64,000 nucleotides of DNA, from the IMG/VR virus record IMGVR_UViG_3300037804_000367, positions 32,001 through 96,000 of that record. One strand, 5' to 3'. The stretch comes from a virus. The notes under the pieces are model-generated. The model was not told where the DNA came from and did not search any database. It saw only the letters and a list, made by a program, of their open reading frames with translations. Below are positions 38-52,147 of this stretch, in pieces; the first letter of the stretch is position 1; every line of letters begins with the position of its first letter. The translations under genes and the position numbers were made by a program.

Positions 38-113
38 TGGAGCCGCCTGACAGAATCGAACTGACATTCCTGCATTACAAAAGCAGTTTCTTAAGCCATT
101 AGAAGAAGGCGGC
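38..113 (-). tRNA. tRNA-Thr(UGU)
   Basis: Cloverleaf; anticodon arm CTGCT-TTTGTAA-TGCAG; T loop TTCGATT; encoded CCA. Confidence 0.88.
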
Positions 114-123
114 ATTTAAAACT

Positions 124-199
124 TGGTGGAGAATACCGGCCTCGAACCGGTGTCGGGTGGGTGCAAGCCACCTGTTTTATCCATCTAAACTAATTCCCC
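124..199 (-). tRNA. tRNA-Ala(UGC)
   Basis: GGTGG-CTTGCAC-CCACC anticodon arm; G3:U70; encoded CCA. Confidence 0.95.
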
Positions 200-219
200 A
201 AAAATCTTTACTATAGTGA

Positions 220-738
220 CTACCCTAACGACAGCCCTCTTGCACTTCTACCATTACCTTTATTTCGTCCGCCAAATGTTTCAGTCTGACTATGACAATT
301 AGGACAAATTAATCTCAAGTTAGTTGGAAAGTTATTTCCTGCGTTCCCGTCGATGTGGTCTACTTGTAGTGTTAAAGGCTTGTTATTATATTCACTTATA
401 TTACATAGTGCACATTTATATCCTTGATCATGAGTTAAGCAACGTCTCAGGGTATTTCTAGTTTCTATCAATCCGTCTCTAAATCTACAAAGGGTAGTGT
501 TCTCAAATTTATAGTTTGCTTGGCAAATATTATTACAGTATATTTTTTTACTATGTTTTATATCTGCTTTACAATACTTACAATTTGATAATCTACCTTT
601 ATATGATCGTAATGTATTTGTAACCGTTGCTCTACATGATTTACTACAGAACTTGTTTGTTCTTTGTTTAAATGTTAACATGCTGTTACAGCACTGACAA
701 TATTTTGGATGTTCACTATATATTTGTTTTGTTATCAT
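220..738 (-). CDS. HNH (homing-type) endonuclease with N-terminal Cys-rich zinc-binding repeats
   Basis: DHIDGN...NLRLICPNCHSQT HNH motif; CxxC repeats; AGGAG RBS; inserted between tRNAs. Confidence 0.9.
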   Translation of the reverse strand: MITKQIYSEHPKYCQCCNSMLTFKQRTNKFCSKSCRATVTNTLRSYKGRLSNCKYCKADIKHSKKIYCNNICQANYKFENTTLCRFRDGLIETRNTLRRCLTHDQGYKCALCNISEYNNKPLTLQVDHIDGNAGNNFPTNLRLICPNCHSQTETFGGRNKGNGRSARGLSLG

Positions 739-756
739 TTCACATCTCCTTTCTAT

Positions 757-764
757 TATTTATA
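757..764 (-). promoter_or_regulatory. T4-type late promoter box TATAAATA
   Basis: Exact TATAAATA just upstream of the RBS of the HNH gene. Confidence 0.55.
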
Positions 765-803
765 ATATACAGGAGTCGAACTCACTAGCACAAGTTAAAA
801 AAG

Positions 804-877
804 TGCAACGTACCGGTCTCGAACCGATCTTATTTCTCGTTGGCAACGAGATGCCATACCAACTAGGCGAACGATGC
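804..877 (-). tRNA. tRNA-Gly(GCC)
   Basis: TCTCG-TTGCCAA-CGAGA anticodon arm; T loop TTCGAGA. Confidence 0.92.
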
Positions 878-935
878 ATGTAAAATTTACTTCTATCTTC
901 TATCACATGTTATAAAACAGATCAATGTTAAAATA

Positions 936-1009
936 TGGCTACCCCGACTGGTTACGATCCAATCCTAACTCTTTCAAAGAGAGCTGTGCTACCAATACAC
1001 TACAGGGCA
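936..1009 (-). tRNA. tRNA-Gln(UUG) with atypical T loop (ATCGTAA)
   Basis: GCTCT-CTTTGAA-AGAGT anticodon arm; CCA encoded; A54/U58 T loop. Confidence 0.85.
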
Positions 1010-1020
1010 GTCTAAAAAGT

Positions 1021-1096
1021 TGGCGGTATAGACGAGAGACGATCTCGCAACCTTCCGATAGACAATCGGATGCTCTGCCAATTGAGCTACTATACC
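1021..1096 (-). tRNA. tRNA-Asp(GUC) with atypical T loop (ATCGTCT)
   Basis: TCCGA-TTGTCTA-TCGGA anticodon arm; G73; CCA encoded. Confidence 0.85.
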
Positions 1097-1103
1097 AATT
1101 AAG

Positions 1104-1185
1104 TGCCGCCTCTGGGTAACGATCCCAGCGAGCATAATGCGCAGGTTTTACAGACCTGATCCCCTCCTTAGAGATATACAACGGC
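1104..1185 (-). tRNA. tRNA-Tyr(GUA), long variable arm, atypical T loop (ATCGTTA)
   Basis: CAGGT-CTGTAAA-ACCTG anticodon arm; class II variable arm; A73. Confidence 0.85.
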
Positions 1186-1194
1186 TTAAAATAA

Positions 1195-1267
1195 CGGTTC
1201 ATACGAGATTTGAACTCGTGTTCCGCCCGTGACAGGGGCGTGTCCTAACCAACTAGACGAATGAACC
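1195..1267 (-). tRNA. tRNA-Asp(GUC), canonical second copy
   Basis: CGCCC-CTGTCAC-GGGCG; T loop TTCAAAT; G73. Confidence 0.95.
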
Positions 1268-1276
1268 TTAAAAGTT

Positions 1277-1894
1277 TTATTTTTTTCTTGTTTTATAAGT
1301 GCTGGTTTGAGAATGACAATTAGGACATAACATTCTCAAATTAGAAATTTCATTATTCCTATGATCACCGTTAATATGATCAACATCCAAAGTAATATCA
1401 TTTCCTAACCAGTTTGTCAAATGACAGCTAGAGCAAATATTCATATCTAATATTTTGAATTTCTTTACTGCTCTGCTAATACTACTCCTATCATACTCAC
1501 TATTTTTACAAAAAATCAATTCTCTTGTCCATTCCTTTTTCCCTCTCCTATATGATTTTTTTAAATCAAAATGTTCTAAACTTAGATTATGTTCTTTGAT
1601 CTTCAATTTCACATTTTTTATATTATTATTATGATAAGTTAAATTTAATTGTTTTAATACATCAGCCATACAAATTGAATTAGCAATAGCTGATTTTAAG
1701 TCATTAATGCTATATCTCATACTTCTACGACAAAGCAAAATTCCATTTTGCGTTAGCCTTTCTGAAAGGATTTCTCGCACTCCAGTGTCTTGACTTTCTA
1801 TAACCTTTAAAATATTTGAGATTGATTTGTGTTTATAATACAAATCACAAAGTTCAACATCTGTCATTTTTCGTACAATTTCTCTTTTCGTCAT
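1277..1894 (-). CDS. HNH (homing-type) endonuclease
   Basis: DVDHINGDHRNNEISNLRMLCPNCHSQT; start taken as MTKRE because the ATG at 1924 abuts the late box. Confidence 0.9.
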   Translation of the reverse strand: MTKREIVRKMTDVELCDLYYKHKSISNILKVIESQDTGVREILSERLTQNGILLCRRSMRYSINDLKSAIANSICMADVLKQLNLTYHNNNIKNVKLKIKEHNLSLEHFDLKKSYRRGKKEWTRELIFCKNSEYDRSSISRAVKKFKILDMNICSSCHLTNWLGNDITLDVDHINGDHRNNEISNLRMLCPNCHSQTSTYKTRKK

Positions 1895-1924
1895 AATGGC
1901 ACCTCTTATTGTTACACCTGTCAT

Positions 1925-1932
1925 TATTTATA
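1925..1932 (-). promoter_or_regulatory. T4-type late promoter box TATAAATA
   Basis: Exact box about 30 nt upstream of the HNH start. Confidence 0.55.
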
Positions 1933-2010
1933 ACAACTATAGCACTAACTGTGCCCTAACAACTACATAAAATAAAGAGGAAATCAACAGACTTTCTTAC
2001 TGAATTTTAA

Positions 2011-2175
2011 TGGGAAGTGTAGGAATCGAACCTACGAATGTTTACAAAAGCTCATCAGCCTCATTCAACTTGATCGGCGCTAACCCTAATCAAGCGGTAA
2101 ACTCTAAGTCACTTAGCCTCCATGACCTATTTGTGTGCCCGATGACGCTAATCATCATCATCTCATCTACTTCCC
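2011..2175 (-). ncRNA. tRNA-like RNA (acceptor + T arm) with expanded multi-hairpin core, 165 nt
   Basis: GGGAAGT/ACTTCCC-A acceptor; GTAGG-TTCGATT-CCTAC T arm; interior hairpins and no canonical anticodon arm. Confidence 0.65.
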
Positions 2176-2193
2176 AGTAAATTGTTTGTAAAG

Positions 2194-2267
2194 TACTACA
2201 GGAGAGATTTGAACTCTCAGTCACCTGTTTATCAGACAGGCGGCTTAACCAATTTGCCTACCGTAGT
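2194..2267 (-). tRNA. tRNA-Ile(GAU)
   Basis: CCTGT-CTGATAA-ACAGG; T loop TTCAAAT. Confidence 0.93.
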
Positions 2268-2276
2268 AAAAGTGAG

Positions 2277-2409
2277 TGGGGTCGGTAGGAATCGAACCTA
2301 CTTACAACTTTATCCAAGCATTAAGTAATAGCTTATTACTTTCACTATTTAGCCTAGTGATTAATTTTAAGGATATCTAAACAAGTTGCTCTTCCACTAA
2401 GCAACCCCA
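2277..2409 (-). ncRNA. tRNA-like RNA with a 65-nt structured insert in the anticodon arm
   Basis: TGGGGTTG/CGACCCCA acceptor; D-like arm; AACTT/AAGTT stem enclosing GTTTAGA plus a TATCC...GGATA insert; canonical T arm. Confidence 0.65.
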
Positions 2410-2427
2410 TGTAAATTTTTAATAAAT

Positions 2428-2504
2428 TGGTGCGACATGAGAGACTCGAACTCTCAACATCCACATTGGAAGTGTGGCACTCTAGCCAATTGAGTTAATG
2501 TCGC
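2428..2504 (-). tRNA. tRNA-Gly(UCC)
   Basis: CCACA-CTTCCAA-TGTGG; encoded CCA. Confidence 0.95.
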
Positions 2505-2588
2505 ATTTAAAAGTACCGCCGTGATATTGATCTATGGTGTCGACCCCTTCGATCTTCAAACCCTTAGAGTGAGCTTATATTACTCAAG

Positions 2589-2660
2589 TGGAGGACACGG
2601 GACTCGAACCCACAATGCCGGCAGTTTGCCGGTGAAGTTAACCAATTACTTCCAATCCCC
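2589..2660 (-). ncRNA. tRNA-like RNA with Ala identity (G3:U70, A73) but a non-canonical 5-nt anticodon loop
   Basis: GGGGGAT/GTCCTCC-A; CCGGC-AAACT-GCCGG; T loop TTCGAGT. Confidence 0.65.
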
Positions 2661-2749
2661 CGAGCAACATTATTCACACCGTTCGGGTTTGTTTTTATAT
2701 CACGACTTGGCATCCCCATCCTCCCTTTCGGGACTCCGCTTCTGCCTGA

Positions 2750-2821
2750 CTGATCTAGCTGGACTCGAACCAACATTTTACAAATTAACAGTTTGCTGCA
2801 TTACCATTATGCTATAGACCA
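2750..2821 (-). tRNA. tRNA-Asn(GUU)
   Basis: GCAAA-CTGTTAA-TTTGT; G73; T loop TTCGAGT. Confidence 0.92.
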
Positions 2822-2830
2822 AGGTAAAAA

Positions 2831-2973
2831 ACATTTACTTAACATTTAAATCTTTATCATTCGGCGTAGTTAGTTTAAAAACTACCTTTAGGATGTTCCC
2901 CGTCTGAAAATGTTTGGTGGATTCGCAGAGTTGATGATAAATATCCTTGTCGGTTCCGTTGTTAAGTAAATGT
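2831..2973. ncRNA. Candidate structured RNA closed by a perfect 14-bp inverted repeat
   Basis: acatttacttaaca (2831-2844) / tgttaagtaaatgt (2960-2973); inner tttatcat/atgataaa stem. Confidence 0.45.
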
Positions 2974-3041
2974 AAAGATGTATTTAATTTAGGGTACTGC
3001 TGTAACCATTACGCTACATTACGGTTCTAACTTAGATACAA

Positions 3042-3112
3042 TGGCGGGTGCCGGACTCGAACCGACGTGCGAGGCTTATGAGACCCCTGAGTGACCACTA
3101 CTCTAACCCGCT
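3042..3112 (-). tRNA. tRNA-Met(CAU), initiator-like
   Basis: CTCATAA loop; mismatch at 1:72; G-rich 5' anticodon stem. Confidence 0.85.
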
Positions 3113-3335
3113 ACAAAAAGTAAGCCTCTATATTTTTGTTATCTCGGAGGTTGACACTTACCCGTCCTCCGACTACTCATAATTTTTAAAATGGTGGATC
3201 GCTTATTTTTCATGATCGTCCACACCGTAACACTTTATAAACAAACTAGTATTTATTATAAAGCTTATACCTGCTTCACGAACCGCCTGACCATTATCCG
3301 AATTGTTTTAGTTTCGGCAACTACAGTTGTTAAAA

Positions 3336-3459
3336 AGCCCACCACTGGAATCGAACCAGTTCCTAGAGTCGGGTTTGTTCCTTTGCGAAGCGCTTCACTC
3401 GGGACCTCCATCTAATATAACCTCAGCAAGTGAGTGCTCTACCAATGAGCTAAATGAGC
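3336..3459 (-). ncRNA. tRNA-like RNA/pseudo-tRNA with expanded anticodon region (124 nt)
   Basis: Canonical D arm GCTC-ATTGGTA-GAGC and T arm ACTGG-TTCGATT-CCAGT flank a roughly 70-nt insert. Confidence 0.55.
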
Positions 3460-3474
3460 ATGTTGTTTGTAAAA

Positions 3475-3535
3475 TGGCGCTGGAACTAGGAGTGCATGCC
3501 TAGATTTACCATCCCTATCCTAAGGGACGTCCAAC
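3475..3535 (-). ncRNA. D-armless mini tRNA-like RNA ending in CCA (61 nt)
   Basis: GTTGGAC/TTCCAGC-G-CCA with two 5-bp hairpins (GTCCC/GGGAT, CTAGG/CCTAG). Confidence 0.4.
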
Positions 3536-3541
3536 ATTTAG

Positions 3542-3615
3542 TATTCCAGACGGGGCTCGAACCCGCAATCTTCTGCGTGAAAGGCAGACGAGATGACCAA
3601 TTACTCCACTGGAAC
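3542..3615 (-). tRNA. tRNA-Glu(UUC)
   Basis: TCTGC-CTTTCAC-GCAGA; T loop TTCGAGC. Confidence 0.93.
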
Positions 3616-31991: not shown

Positions 31992-32767
31992 TAGTTTAGA
32001 TGTAGTTTCATCTTTTTAAATAATTCAATATTATCATAAGCATCGTCACTGGCTGTTTCAGCTTGTTCAAATGTTTTATTTAATTCAAGAGCAATCAAGT
32101 TGATGAGAAATTTATATCGCGTGTCCTTTACCAATCCGCAATATTTTAAATCAATTCCCAAATCATCTATCGGATTATCATTACAGCTTAAATTTGTTAA
32201 ATTAATACTGACATCATTTAATTGTTTCGTAAAGTAAAATAATCCCTTGCATTCAAGTTGCTCTAAAATGGAATACCAATCACCAGATGAATAATTTTTA
32301 CGATCGTTTTTTCGTTTGCTATCTCCTGTCAAGGCTCTTCTTGCTGGTGGAAGGGGACATGATAAATCCAATTTATCAGATATCAATTCTAAATTTTCAT
32401 ATTTTAACTTTTCTTGTATACTTGTTATGCATAATCCGAAAGTTGATTTTAATTCACATCCATTCTTGTCCAAACGTAACAATATATAATTCAAAGGCAC
32501 ACGAGGCGATTCATTAAATTTTATTCGATTTCCATATGTCCTAGTCGTGTGGTAATAACCATAACCTGACTTTACACGGTATTGTTTATAATATCCCACT
32601 ACTTTAAAATCACAACCTTCATTAAAGTTTGTTCCCATGTATCCTTTTATAATTTTAAACTTTGAACCGATTGGAAACTGTGGATGATCTTTAGGATCGA
32701 AAGTTTTAATATGATCACTGACTAATTTTCTTGCAGTAGAGTTGTAATACATTTCTTGAAATTTCAT
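31991..32767 (-). CDS. Hypothetical protein (258 aa) with MxxHL tag
   Basis: Ends FKKMKLHLN*. Confidence 0.75.
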   Translation of the reverse strand: MKFQEMYYNSTARKLVSDHIKTFDPKDHPQFPIGSKFKIIKGYMGTNFNEGCDFKVVGYYKQYRVKSGYGYYHTTRTYGNRIKFNESPRVPLNYILLRLDKNGCELKSTFGLCITSIQEKLKYENLELISDKLDLSCPLPPARRALTGDSKRKNDRKNYSSGDWYSILEQLECKGLFYFTKQLNDVSINLTNLSCNDNPIDDLGIDLKYCGLVKDTRYKFLINLIALELNKTFEQAETASDDAYDNIELFKKMKLHLN

Positions 32768-35966: not shown

Positions 35967-36377
35967 GATACTATTTTTCCTTTTTGTCTTGAGATGTACG
36001 AATGCCTAACCACTGAAAAACTCTTGTTTCTAGCTCTTTAAATTTCTTTCGATCGTCTTTAATCCTTTGCTTCTTCTGATTCTTTTTAGATTTTTTCATT
36101 ACATGCAGTCGTCCATATGAGCGTTAAGATTATTTTCAAGAGTTTTATTATCACAGTCAACTGCTGGATACAATTCACAGTTTTCCTCTCCACATTTTGA
36201 CCAGCTCTTAACTAAAGATTCAGCTTGGTCGCAATTGCGATCGATGTACTGTTCGCAAACTTTCTTTGCATTTTGCTCAGTGGTTTCAATTTCTTCATTG
36301 AGCCATTCACAGCCGTTCATTGTAGAGTAATAAAATTTTAGTAACATTTTAAATCCTTCGTTTTTCTTACCTATTTT

Positions 36378-50838: not shown

Positions 50839-50873
50839 AAAAAAGAGCGCCTTTTTATGGGCGCTCTTTTTTT
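50839..50873. terminator. Intrinsic terminator closing the suppressor-tRNA/PTH2 operon
   Basis: A6-gagcgcc-ttttta-tgggcgctc-T7. Confidence 0.85.
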
Positions 50874-51183
50874 AGTTCATTAATTGAAACTTTCTGAAGA
50901 ACTGTCTGTCGTCTCCATGAATTGGTTCCGTTGCAATAGCAGTCATTTGATTTCCAATATCTGGTTCAAAGAATGCTCTGAATTTAACTTGCAATTTTTC
51001 AGCAATTGTTTTTAACTTGTGTTCGCTTTTTACAGTAACAATAATAACTGATGGATGTTCCTGTCCAGGTTTGATAAATGCTCGCGAAGCTTCAATTGCA
51101 GCATGTGCAGACTGTACAGCTTTTTGGGCATTTGATAAATCATTCCTAATAAGAACGTACATGTATTTTGGGACCTATGTCAT
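50872..51183 (-). CDS. PTH2-like peptidyl-tRNA hydrolase; in-frame TAG at codon 3 (ATG ACA TAG GTC CCA AAA TAC ATG...)
   Basis: YVLIRNDLS.AQKAVQSAHAA...FFEPDIGNQMTAIA; ATG at 51183 abuts the upstream TAA; internal ATG at 51162 is the alternative start. Confidence 0.8.
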
Positions 51184-51519
51184 TTAAGCTACCTCTTCAA
51201 CTTCTACAGTTTCCGAAATGACTTGATGAACTACTGCTTCAAGTTTTTTATAACTGTTACTAAATCCGTTCTTAAACTCGTTATCATTGTGAGTATGACT
51301 TGGTTTGTTACGAAACTCATTGTAAATGATATGAAGCAACGTAAGGTTTGTTGCAAAAGAATTTGGTCTTAGTGTATTTTCTAATCTCCAATCTCCGTCT
51401 CTCTGAGCTTGTTTAAACTCAGGTTTGCGAATCTTCTGTGCTTCAGTTAGTTTTATGATTTCACTTTTTAGGGTAGAAACTACTGCTTTGTATTGTGCTC
51501 TTGTGATATTCGTATTCAT
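51184..51519 (-). CDS. Hypothetical helical protein co-transcribed with PTH2
   Basis: CGGAGA RBS 6 nt upstream; 111 aa. Confidence 0.75.
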   Translation of the reverse strand: MNTNITRAQYKAVVSTLKSEIIKLTEAQKIRKPEFKQAQRDGDWRLENTLRPNSFATNLTLLHIIYNEFRNKPSHTHNDNEFKNGFSNSYKKLEAVVHQVISETVEVEEVA

Positions 51520-51584
51520 TTTCTTTCTCCGAAATATTATTTAATTAAGTGTTTGTTTTTATAAAATGGGTAATCCATTTTCAC

Positions 51585-51614
51585 TTACGGAGAGTTGTTA
51601 CGTATCTACATCAT
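51585..51614 (-). promoter_or_regulatory. Leader minigene ATG-ATG-TAG (read-through product MMxIRNNSP*) with an anti-SD segment
   Basis: AAGGA RBS 8 nt upstream; read-through codons TCT CCG complement the CGGAGA SD at 51526-51531. Confidence 0.55.
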
Positions 51615-51698
51615 GATACAATTCCTTTTATTGTTGTTTTTACTTATATTAAAATCTAATACAAAGTGACACTACCTTGTACTTTTTTAATATTAAAA

Positions 51699-51771
51699 TG
51701 CCCAGTGTGGGGATCGAACCCACGTCTCAAGGATTTAGAATCCAGCGCAATAACCGCTATACTAACTGAGC
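51699..51771 (-). tRNA. Amber suppressor tRNA (anticodon CUA)
   Basis: GCTCAGT/ACTGGGC-A acceptor; GGA-TTCTAAA-TCC arm; canonical numbering puts CUA at 34-36; GTGGG-TTCGATC-CCCAC T arm. Confidence 0.85.
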
Positions 51772-51782
51772 TTAAAATTAAA

Positions 51783-52091
51783 TTAACCTACGTGAGTAAA
51801 TAATAAAGATTTTGCTTCCATTCCAAAAGCATTTTTAAATCTTTCCTTGTATTCTTCAACTTTTGAAAAATCTAAATCCTTTGACATATTAAATCCAATA
51901 TATGTATCATCATCTTCAGGACCAGATAAACAATTTTCAAACTGAACGTCAAATGCAAAATTATCTTTAAAATATTCATTATCGTCCCAAGCAGGAAGAT
52001 CAGCGATTTCTCTTACAGTCAACCCAATATCCTGTACGGATCGACCAATCATTAGTACAGCTTCATACTCGTAACTCATTTCAAACTCCAA
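51783..52091 (-). CDS. Acidic hypothetical protein, first gene of the suppressor operon
   Basis: Follows the 52120 promoter; ends 11 nt before the tRNA. Confidence 0.7.
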   Translation of the reverse strand: MEFEMSYEYEAVLMIGRSVQDIGLTVREIADLPAWDDNEYFKDNFAFDVQFENCLSGPEDDDTYIGFNMSKDLDFSKVEEYKERFKNAFGMEAKSLLFTHVG

Positions 52092-52119: not shown

Positions 52120-52147
52120 AATATACATCCTTAACTAGACAAGTCAA
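52120..52147 (-). promoter_or_regulatory. Early-type promoter of the suppressor/PTH2 operon
   Basis: TTGACT-N16-TATATT. Confidence 0.8.

Follow-up and report, generated by a model that had tools for sequence, protein, structure and literature searches.

How might a phage that still ends genes at UAG put an amber suppressor tRNA of its own to use? The question arises from a locus in a 64,000-nucleotide (nt) stretch of viral DNA, referred to here as the window, which covers positions 32,001 to 96,000 of IMG/VR virus record IMGVR_UViG_3300037804_000367. The record spans 128.8 kb and is estimated to be 38% complete; the same DNA has been seen in several seawater metagenomes, and its source is described as a marine jumbo phage. 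In the window, a gene for a tRNA with the anticodon CUA, tRNA(CUA), is followed by a short leader and then by a gene for a protein of 111 amino acids (aa), and the leader holds an upstream open reading frame (uORF) that runs into TAG after two codons. The original prediction held that read-through of this UAG unmasks the Shine-Dalgarno (SD) sequence of the 111-aa gene. A comparison of seven lineages, a model of leader folding around a ribosome, and the linkage of the leader to tRNA(CUA) support that proposal at the level of sequence and modeling, and we consider it likely that the leader is a translational attenuator with UAG read-through as its input, reporting the balance between suppressor tRNA and release factor 1 (RF1).

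Coordinates are window positions throughout, and the leader, the tRNA, and both genes downstream of it all lie on the minus strand. The uORF is preceded by an SD of its own (AAGGA, 51623..51627), 8 nt ahead of its ATG, and reads ATG ATG TAG, or Met-Met-amber (51606..51614; ATG at 51614-51612, ATG at 51611-51609, and TAG at 51608-51606). This TAG is the first of two candidate amber locks at the locus. Past it, the frame had been reported to continue as ATA CGT AAC AAC TCT CCG TAA, and the minus-strand letters agree at every coordinate: the extension occupies 51585..51605, with the codons for Ile-Arg-Asn-Asn-Ser-Pro at 51605-51588 and the TAA at 51587-51585. Its last two sense codons, UCUCCG (51588..51593), lie 13 nt past the UAG and constitute an anti-SD, being the exact complement, as claimed, of CGGAGA (51526..51531). 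The assignment of CGGAGA as the SD of the 111-aa gene also holds, with its GGAG core 7 nt ahead of the ATG of the open reading frame (ORF; 51184..51519). When 51500-51630 (minus strand) was folded with RNAfold, the minimum free energy (MFE) structure, at -19.9 kcal/mol, included the 6-bp anti-SD:SD helix, in which the anti-SD pairs with a probability of about 1.0, so that the SD is predicted to be sequestered. Stacked on this helix is a second one, UAAGUG (51587-82) with CACUUA (51551-46), which forms the inner part of the sequestering stem-loop (51546..51587) around a hairpin at 51581-51563. The 7-bp hairpin that was thought to bring the two halves together, AAAAUGG (51581-75) with CCAUUUU (51569-63), is indeed present in the window and in its MFE structure but is not conserved in relatives. 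The fold z-score of the window leader was -2.3 for a 131-nt segment and -2.95 for one of 116 nt. Another small hairpin, at the start of the uORF (GUAUC/GAUAC), was considered as a conserved element and dropped, as by eye it is not kept consistently in relatives.

Homologues of the 111-aa protein were collected by word-indexed and exhaustive profile searches, and DNA was fetched for six further lineages (L002, L010, L012, L015, L017, and L020), whose downstream proteins are 28 to 65% identical across the set of seven. One architecture recurs in all of them. The window leader, ATG ATG TAG ATA CGT AAC AAC TCT CCG with TAA as its second stop, is matched by ATG ATG TAG ATT AAT AAC AAC TCT CCG (TAA) in L002, ATG TTG TAG ATT TAT ATT AGA CCT CCG (TAA) in L012, ATG TTG TAG ATA TAT ATT CGT CCA CCT CCA (TGA) in L010, and ATG ACA TAG GTA CAT ACA TAC TAC CCT CCA (TAA) in L015. 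The L020 contig begins within the uORF and reads ..TTG TAG GTT TCG TGT TTA CCA CGT CCC CCT (TGA), and L017 has a longer uORF, ATG AAA ACA GTA TTC TTG TAG ATC GGT AAA GAC CCT CCG TGG and onward, with a TGA overlapping the main ATG as its second stop. The first stop is thus TAG in all seven, always followed by a purine, and the second is TAA or TGA, never TAG, and comes directly after the anti-SD in six of the seven. Between the two stops lie six to eight sense codons that end in Ser-Pro or Pro-Pro over a CUCC anti-SD (in L017 the frame runs on). The anti-SD is read in a single frame in 7/7 lineages (YCU CCR or CCC CCU, giving Ser-Pro or Pro-Pro), so that proline ends the read-through peptide ahead of the second stop (in L017, CCT CCG is followed by TGG onward). 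AAGGA or AGGAG stands 6 to 8 nt ahead of the uORF ATG in each of the six lineages with a visible start, and the GGAG SD of the homologous gene is found roughly 50 to 60 nt beyond the anti-SD in every lineage. The leaders of the window and L002 are almost identical in two blocks, and the coding sequence is far more diverged (protein 55% identical). Given that this architecture is kept in seven diverged lineages, the 111-aa gene is probably translated only when the phage tRNA(CUA) overrides the UAG stop.

The tRNA is the other constant of the locus. The window tRNA(CUA) gene (51699..51771, minus strand; called by ARAGORN and matched by Rfam RF00005 at 52.6 bits) has the anticodon of an amber suppressor and lies 85 nt upstream of the uORF on the same strand. 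A same-strand tRNA(CUA) gene precedes the leader in all five lineages whose contigs reach that far, namely the window, L002, L012(-14), L015, and L017; for L010 and L020 the contig begins too near the leader to show a tRNA, and both were left out of this count.

We then asked whether the predicted pairing is maintained across lineages. In all eight leaders that were folded, the MFE structure pairs the anti-SD with the SD, at a probability of at least 0.93. RNAalifold kept only the 4-bp core CUCC:GGAG and found no covariation, because this core helix is invariant; the flanks of the core are complementary lineage by lineage. As the core pairing is partly trivial in AT-rich RNA and gave no covariation, the flanks had been tested separately, by pairing the 16 nt after the anti-SD with the 22 nt before the SD and comparing cognate pairs with pairs swapped between lineages. 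Cognate flank duplexes averaged -6.9 kcal/mol, against -3.1 kcal/mol for non-cognate ones (permutation P = 0.0005), which indicates that complementary changes particular to each lineage have maintained the stem. What is conserved beside the anti-SD:SD helix is a second helix stacked on it, whose sequence differs from lineage to lineage.

To relate this stem to ribosome position, we compared the thermodynamic accessibility of the SD in three states, masking a ribosome footprint that was set at -12 to +14 nt around the P site. Across lineages the anti-SD core starts 13 to 21 nt after the TAG, too far on for a ribosome halted at UAG to cover it. In the free RNA, the probability that the SD is unpaired was about 0 in six leaders and 0.3 in L020; with the footprint at the UAG, it was again about 0 in those six and 0.27 in L020. 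Only with the footprint at the second stop (at the Pro-Pro site in L017) did it rise, to between 0.31 and 0.90 in 7/7 leaders.

These data suggest the following scheme. The transcription unit would run from an early promoter through a 98-aa ORF (orf98), tRNA(CUA), the leader, the 111-aa gene, and a gene for a protein resembling the peptidyl-tRNA hydrolase Pth2 to a terminator. A ribosome that translates the uORF and is released by RF1 at the UAG would never reach the stem, and the 111-aa gene would stay off. Were the phage tRNA(CUA) charged and active in suppression, it would decode the UAG and let the ribosome advance six more codons; on terminating at Ser-Pro-UAA, that ribosome would cover the anti-SD and the second helix and so make the SD available to a further ribosome. 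Ribosomes are known to terminate slowly after proline and to be slow in forming the Pro-Pro bond; most relatives have a Pro-Pro-stop, probably a slow step, and such delays would keep the SD open for longer. The 111-aa gene, once translated, would in turn feed the Pth2-like gene through a TAAATG junction, and there a UAG at codon 3 would require the same tRNA again.

This second amber lies in a coding sequence. In all lineages, tblastn placed an orthologue of the Pth2-like gene after the homologue of the 111-aa gene. An in-frame TAG stands ahead of its conserved N terminus, Y-[MV]-Y-[IV]-[LI]-[IV]-R-N-D, in the window, L010, L012, and L015. The window junction reads TAA ATG ACA TAG GTC CCA AAA TAC ATG: the TAA of the 111-aa gene is followed at once by the candidate second lock, ATG ACA TAG (51175..51183, minus strand), in frame with the Pth2-like ORF (96 aa; 50872..51174, minus strand), whose conserved N terminus, here Y-M-Y-V-L-I-R-N-D, begins at the TAC at 51165 and contains an internal ATG at 51162. 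The corresponding sequences are ACT TAG GAC CCA ATG in L010, TAA ATG CAA TAG ACT CCT TAT GTT in L012 (2843-2851), and ATG AAT AAC ACA TAG AAC CAA TAC GTA in L015 (2868-2882). In L012 and L015 there is no ATG between the TAG and the conserved N terminus, and gene callers missed or truncated the gene; lacking a later ATG, the Pth2-like enzyme of these two lineages could be made only by decoding UAG. As to identity, the window protein scored 21.3 bits against Pfam PF01981 (Pth2; E = 3.3e-4) and the L002 orthologue 23.7 bits (E = 5.9e-5), with the cut-off at 23. The Pth2-like protein also matched PHROG 3668, a hydrolase, and its matches to NCBIfam Pth2 models were weak. Its AlphaFold2 (AF2) model was poor (predicted local distance difference test [pLDDT] score, 57), and its best sequence match in the PDB, at an E value of 0.65, was a peptidyl-tRNA hydrolase.

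Two cultured phages carry the same combination of a Pth2-like amber and a suppressor tRNA. Yersinia phage fHe-Yen9-04 (NC_042116.1; L022:1975-2300) has an unannotated Pth2-like gene that starts ATG TCT CAC TAG and has no other start, with a tRNA(CUA) gene 3 kb downstream (record positions 292524-292596); the intergenic region upstream of its g405 shows no clear anti-SD leader. In Xanthomonas phage XacN1 (AP018399.1; L021:1440-2300), an SD and ATG AAG TAG stand in frame before ORF364, a fusion gene whose C-terminal part is Pth2-like, and two tandem tRNA(CUA) genes (record positions 36047-36202) lie beside the transfer-messenger RNA (tmRNA) gene. That Pth2-like ambers and tRNA(CUA) occur in the same phages is a separate line of evidence that the UAG codons of this operon are there to be decoded. 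A further ATG TTA TAG was seen in L002 (L002:3320-3370) after the 105-aa gene, in frame with an inserted 168-aa gene that is not Pth2; this inserted gene may also be amber gated.

Such decoding would be local. TAG is the terminal codon of approximately 13% of the phage's ORFs, coding density rises from 0.84 under the standard code to 0.86 when TAG is left open, and PHROG domains stop at TAG in every case tested. Because recognizable domains end at TAG, this part of the genome does not appear to be recoded. The 128.8-kb record, approximately 38% of the genome, holds no capsid or polymerase gene, and the late genes lie outside it. Within these 128.8 kb, the two ambers of this operon are the only ones that clearly need decoding.

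Several observations weigh against a read-through switch. TAG is a genuine stop for approximately 30 genes of this phage, so active suppression would be costly. Pairing of this kind is common: a perfect 6-nt anti-SD occurs within 130 nt upstream of 10 of the 140 SD-bearing genes of the phage (~7%), and in a leader this rich in A and T any CUCC would be predicted to pair with GGAG. The CUCC:GGAG core is invariant and so shows no covariation, and several relatives have leaders with modest fold z-scores (-0.7 to -1.3). The read-through peptide of the window, IRNNSP, lacks an R-x-P-P arrest motif, so that the ribosome may not dwell long at the second stop, and in L017 the zero-frame read-through does not stop after the anti-SD and continues to the main start. 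Finally, L016, a distant and GC-richer homologue (735-856), has an anti-SD (CUCCUG:CAGGAG) and lacks the amber; past a TAA, its frame encodes S-R-A-P-P-V and ends at a TGA overlapping the main ATG. The L016 leader may be an ochre-gated or an ungated variant, and no tRNA was found in its 1.3-kb contig.

Taken by itself, then, the 6-nt anti-SD pairing is no more than chance would give. Of 38 genes of the phage with a GGAG SD, 3 have a CTCC in the 100 nt before it, one of them at the window leader; the other two were examined as further switches and set aside, one having a promoter between the CTCC and the SD and the other its CTCC inside a tRNA, so that in neither do CTCC and SD share a transcript. 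With the pairing alone unremarkable, the case for a switch rests on conservation in relatives. Relatives were sought in further collections as well. A DNA search of a cultured-phage collection with 1.9 kb around the site gave no match, protein-pattern and DNA-pattern scans of IMG/VR found no relatives, and a pattern scan of metagenomes returned two chance matches and a single true relative, which is the Tara phage already represented by L002. Four seawater DNA runs yielded contigs that did not differ from the window and so showed no population variation there.

One competing account is an ordinary uORF plus a hairpin over the SD, together damping or coupling translation in a constitutive way, in which case the TAG would be a mere stop and tRNA(CUA) would serve something else. 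SD-masking hairpins and short uORFs are common, the 7% of SD genes with a 6-nt anti-SD shows how readily such pairing turns up in this phage, and in AT-rich DNA it is not unusual for six to eight open codons to follow a stop (by a rough estimate, ~0.6). Such a hairpin would nevertheless have no call for a first stop that is TAG in 7/7 lineages against a background of 13%, for a second stop in the same frame after the anti-SD (directly after it in 6/7), for a tRNA(CUA) that co-occurs in 5/5 lineages, or for another amber in the next gene; moreover, a ribosome at the UAG misses the stem in our model, so the uORF would leave the hairpin unaffected. We consider this account unlikely. A coincidence of motifs in an AT-rich spacer that happens to follow a tRNA is very improbable indeed: chance alone should supply a 6-mer complement several times in each window, but blocks of the leader are more conserved than the adjacent coding sequence, and neither the single architecture of seven lineages nor the flank complementarity (P = 0.0005) would be expected of a spacer.

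Two other accounts give the uORF a role of its own. The leader might gauge RF1 rather than the tRNA, with loss or inhibition of host RF1 during infection causing stalling at the UAG or near-cognate read-through and thereby opening the SD. UAG is read only by RF1, the sensor would in fact report the ratio of suppressor to RF1, and prfB measures RF2 in a similar way by means of an in-frame stop. In the model, however, stalling at the UAG does not make the SD any less paired than in the free RNA; the constant linkage to tRNA(CUA) points to the tRNA as the variable, and no RF1 inhibitor was identified. RF1 as the sensed quantity seems unlikely to us. The uORF also has the form of a lambda bar-type minigene, an SD followed by AUG AUG UAG, and could be one whose two codons cause drop-off of peptidyl-tRNA, with the Pth2-like enzyme of the same operon handling the products and the anti-SD being incidental. 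The toxicity of lambda bar-type minigenes depends on Pth (PMC2490762). A minigene leaves unexplained the invariance of the TAG, the open frame over the anti-SD, the six-codon uORF of L017, and the amber within the Pth2-like gene, and we regard it as highly improbable. No one of these alternatives explains why the TAG is invariant, why a tRNA(CUA) is linked to the leader, and why a second amber follows.

In kind, the mechanism proposed here, amber-gated unmasking of an SD, is classical leader-peptide attenuation; its read-through input is new. In attenuators of the ermC and cat/cmlA type, a ribosome placed in a short leader ORF unmasks the SD of the gene. The window leader resembles them in having a uORF with its own SD and, by prediction, a regulated SD that is masked by pairing within the leader. 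Unlike in those systems, the signal here would be read-through of a stop by a phage tRNA and not a drug-stalled ribosome, and the decisive ribosome position would be reachable only after suppression. The RF2 gene prfB is autoregulatory, with an early in-frame UGA and a +1 frameshift within the gene itself. The leader would likewise gauge termination efficiency at an early in-frame stop, but it has no frameshift site, and its output would pass through the anti-SD helix.

The short upstream ORF has a proline-rich C-terminal end, positioned such that a ribosome halted there would open the SD of the gene that follows; in this it recalls the arrest peptides ApcA, ApdA, and ApdP, for which an R-A-P-P/G motif is essential for arrest (Sakiyama et al. 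2021, PMC7897499). The read-through peptides of L010, L012, and L020 end in R-P-P(-P) and others contain YPP or DPPW, with RAPP found only in L016. The window peptide, MM-X-IRNNSP, differs from the arrest peptides in lacking R-A-P-P/G and in being preceded by an amber gate, and no secretion-monitoring role is apparent here. Recoded phages carry suppressor tRNAs in "code change modules" and recode late genes genome wide (Borges et al., bioRxiv 10.1101/2021.08.26.457843). Like those modules, the present locus would express a phage suppressor tRNA from a standard-code region and contain genes that depend on its activity, but TAG acts as a true stop across the 128.8 kb. A term search of that preprint found no mention of a leader, SD masking, or Pth2. 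In engineered switches, TAG has been inserted in the tna and trp leader peptides to make them respond to unnatural amino acids (reviewed in PMC6412442). Those act on transcription, through Rho and rut, with an orthogonal synthetase, whereas the leader described here is natural and would act on access to the SD. In the literature searched, we found no attenuator of natural origin that takes stop-codon read-through as its input.

The phage DNA is AT rich (34% GC), and almost every gene lies on the minus strand. The probable start of the unit is a sigma-70-like early promoter (TTGACT-16-TATATT; 52120..52147, minus strand), one copy of a repeated early-promoter motif; the motif GTTGACTTATCTAGTTAAGG.TGTATATTA repeats ahead of many small genes, for example, those with starts at 36347, 30807, 11361, and 57600. 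The first gene, the 98-aa ORF (51783..52079, minus strand), had no match in Pfam, PHROG, or NCBIfam. A strong intrinsic terminator with a 13-bp stem and a T run (50839..50872, minus strand) ends the unit.

With regard to the tRNA genes themselves, a manual parse gives the window tRNA(CUA) only three Watson-Crick pairs in the anticodon stem (29-31 with 39-41), and that of L012 looks similar. The anticodon stem of the L017 tRNA (L017:1623-1698) pairs perfectly only with an 8-nt loop, AUUCUAAC, and ARAGORN reports its anticodon as 'tcta'. The L017 leader (1904-1960) has UAGA at its amber; four-base decoding there would give TCG GTA AAG ACC CTC CGT GGT TAA, a frame that, by eye, would end just past the anti-SD and so match the other lineages. 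Elsewhere in the window, 12 tRNA genes are arrayed at 38-3615 on the minus strand, and within that interval a 124-nt segment (3336-3459, minus strand) that ARAGORN did not call shows a weak tRNA match (Rfam, 31 bits) and may be a tRNA with an insert.

The putative regulated gene (51184..51519, minus strand) encodes a protein with the family motif LT.LHI.YN..RNRP.HT. No family match to its product was found in Pfam, PHROG, or NCBIfam. AF2 models the protein as an all-helical bundle (pLDDT, 89.9); Foldseek of this model against the PDB returned nothing below an E value of 0.8, and a protein atlas search returned generic helical look-alikes only. No match was obtained when three members of the family were compared by tblastn with cultured phages, and the N-terminal part of XacN1 ORF364, considered as a possible member, proved to be unrelated.

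Considered as a whole, tRNA(CUA), the leader, and the Pth2-like amber may constitute a self-contained UAG read-through circuit in jumbo phages of the standard code, one in which a few translation-related proteins are made in strict dependence on the activity of the tRNA; we lean, if only slightly, toward this broader view. Phage suppressor tRNAs are usually attributed to whole-genome stop recoding, and here TAG still stops. If the scheme is correct, the leader would be the first riboregulator from nature to take suppression of a stop codon as its input and a natural counterpart of the synthetic amber-dependent leader switches, and translational attenuation would be seen to sense decoding capacity itself. 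It would also raise the question of why a helical protein and a Pth2-like enzyme are needed under suppression, perhaps for clearing the by-products of read-through. The cultured Yersinia and Xanthomonas relatives put bench tests within reach, and the otherwise unexplained suppressor tRNAs of standard-code phages, including those of fHe-Yen9-04 and XacN1, would have a defined target.
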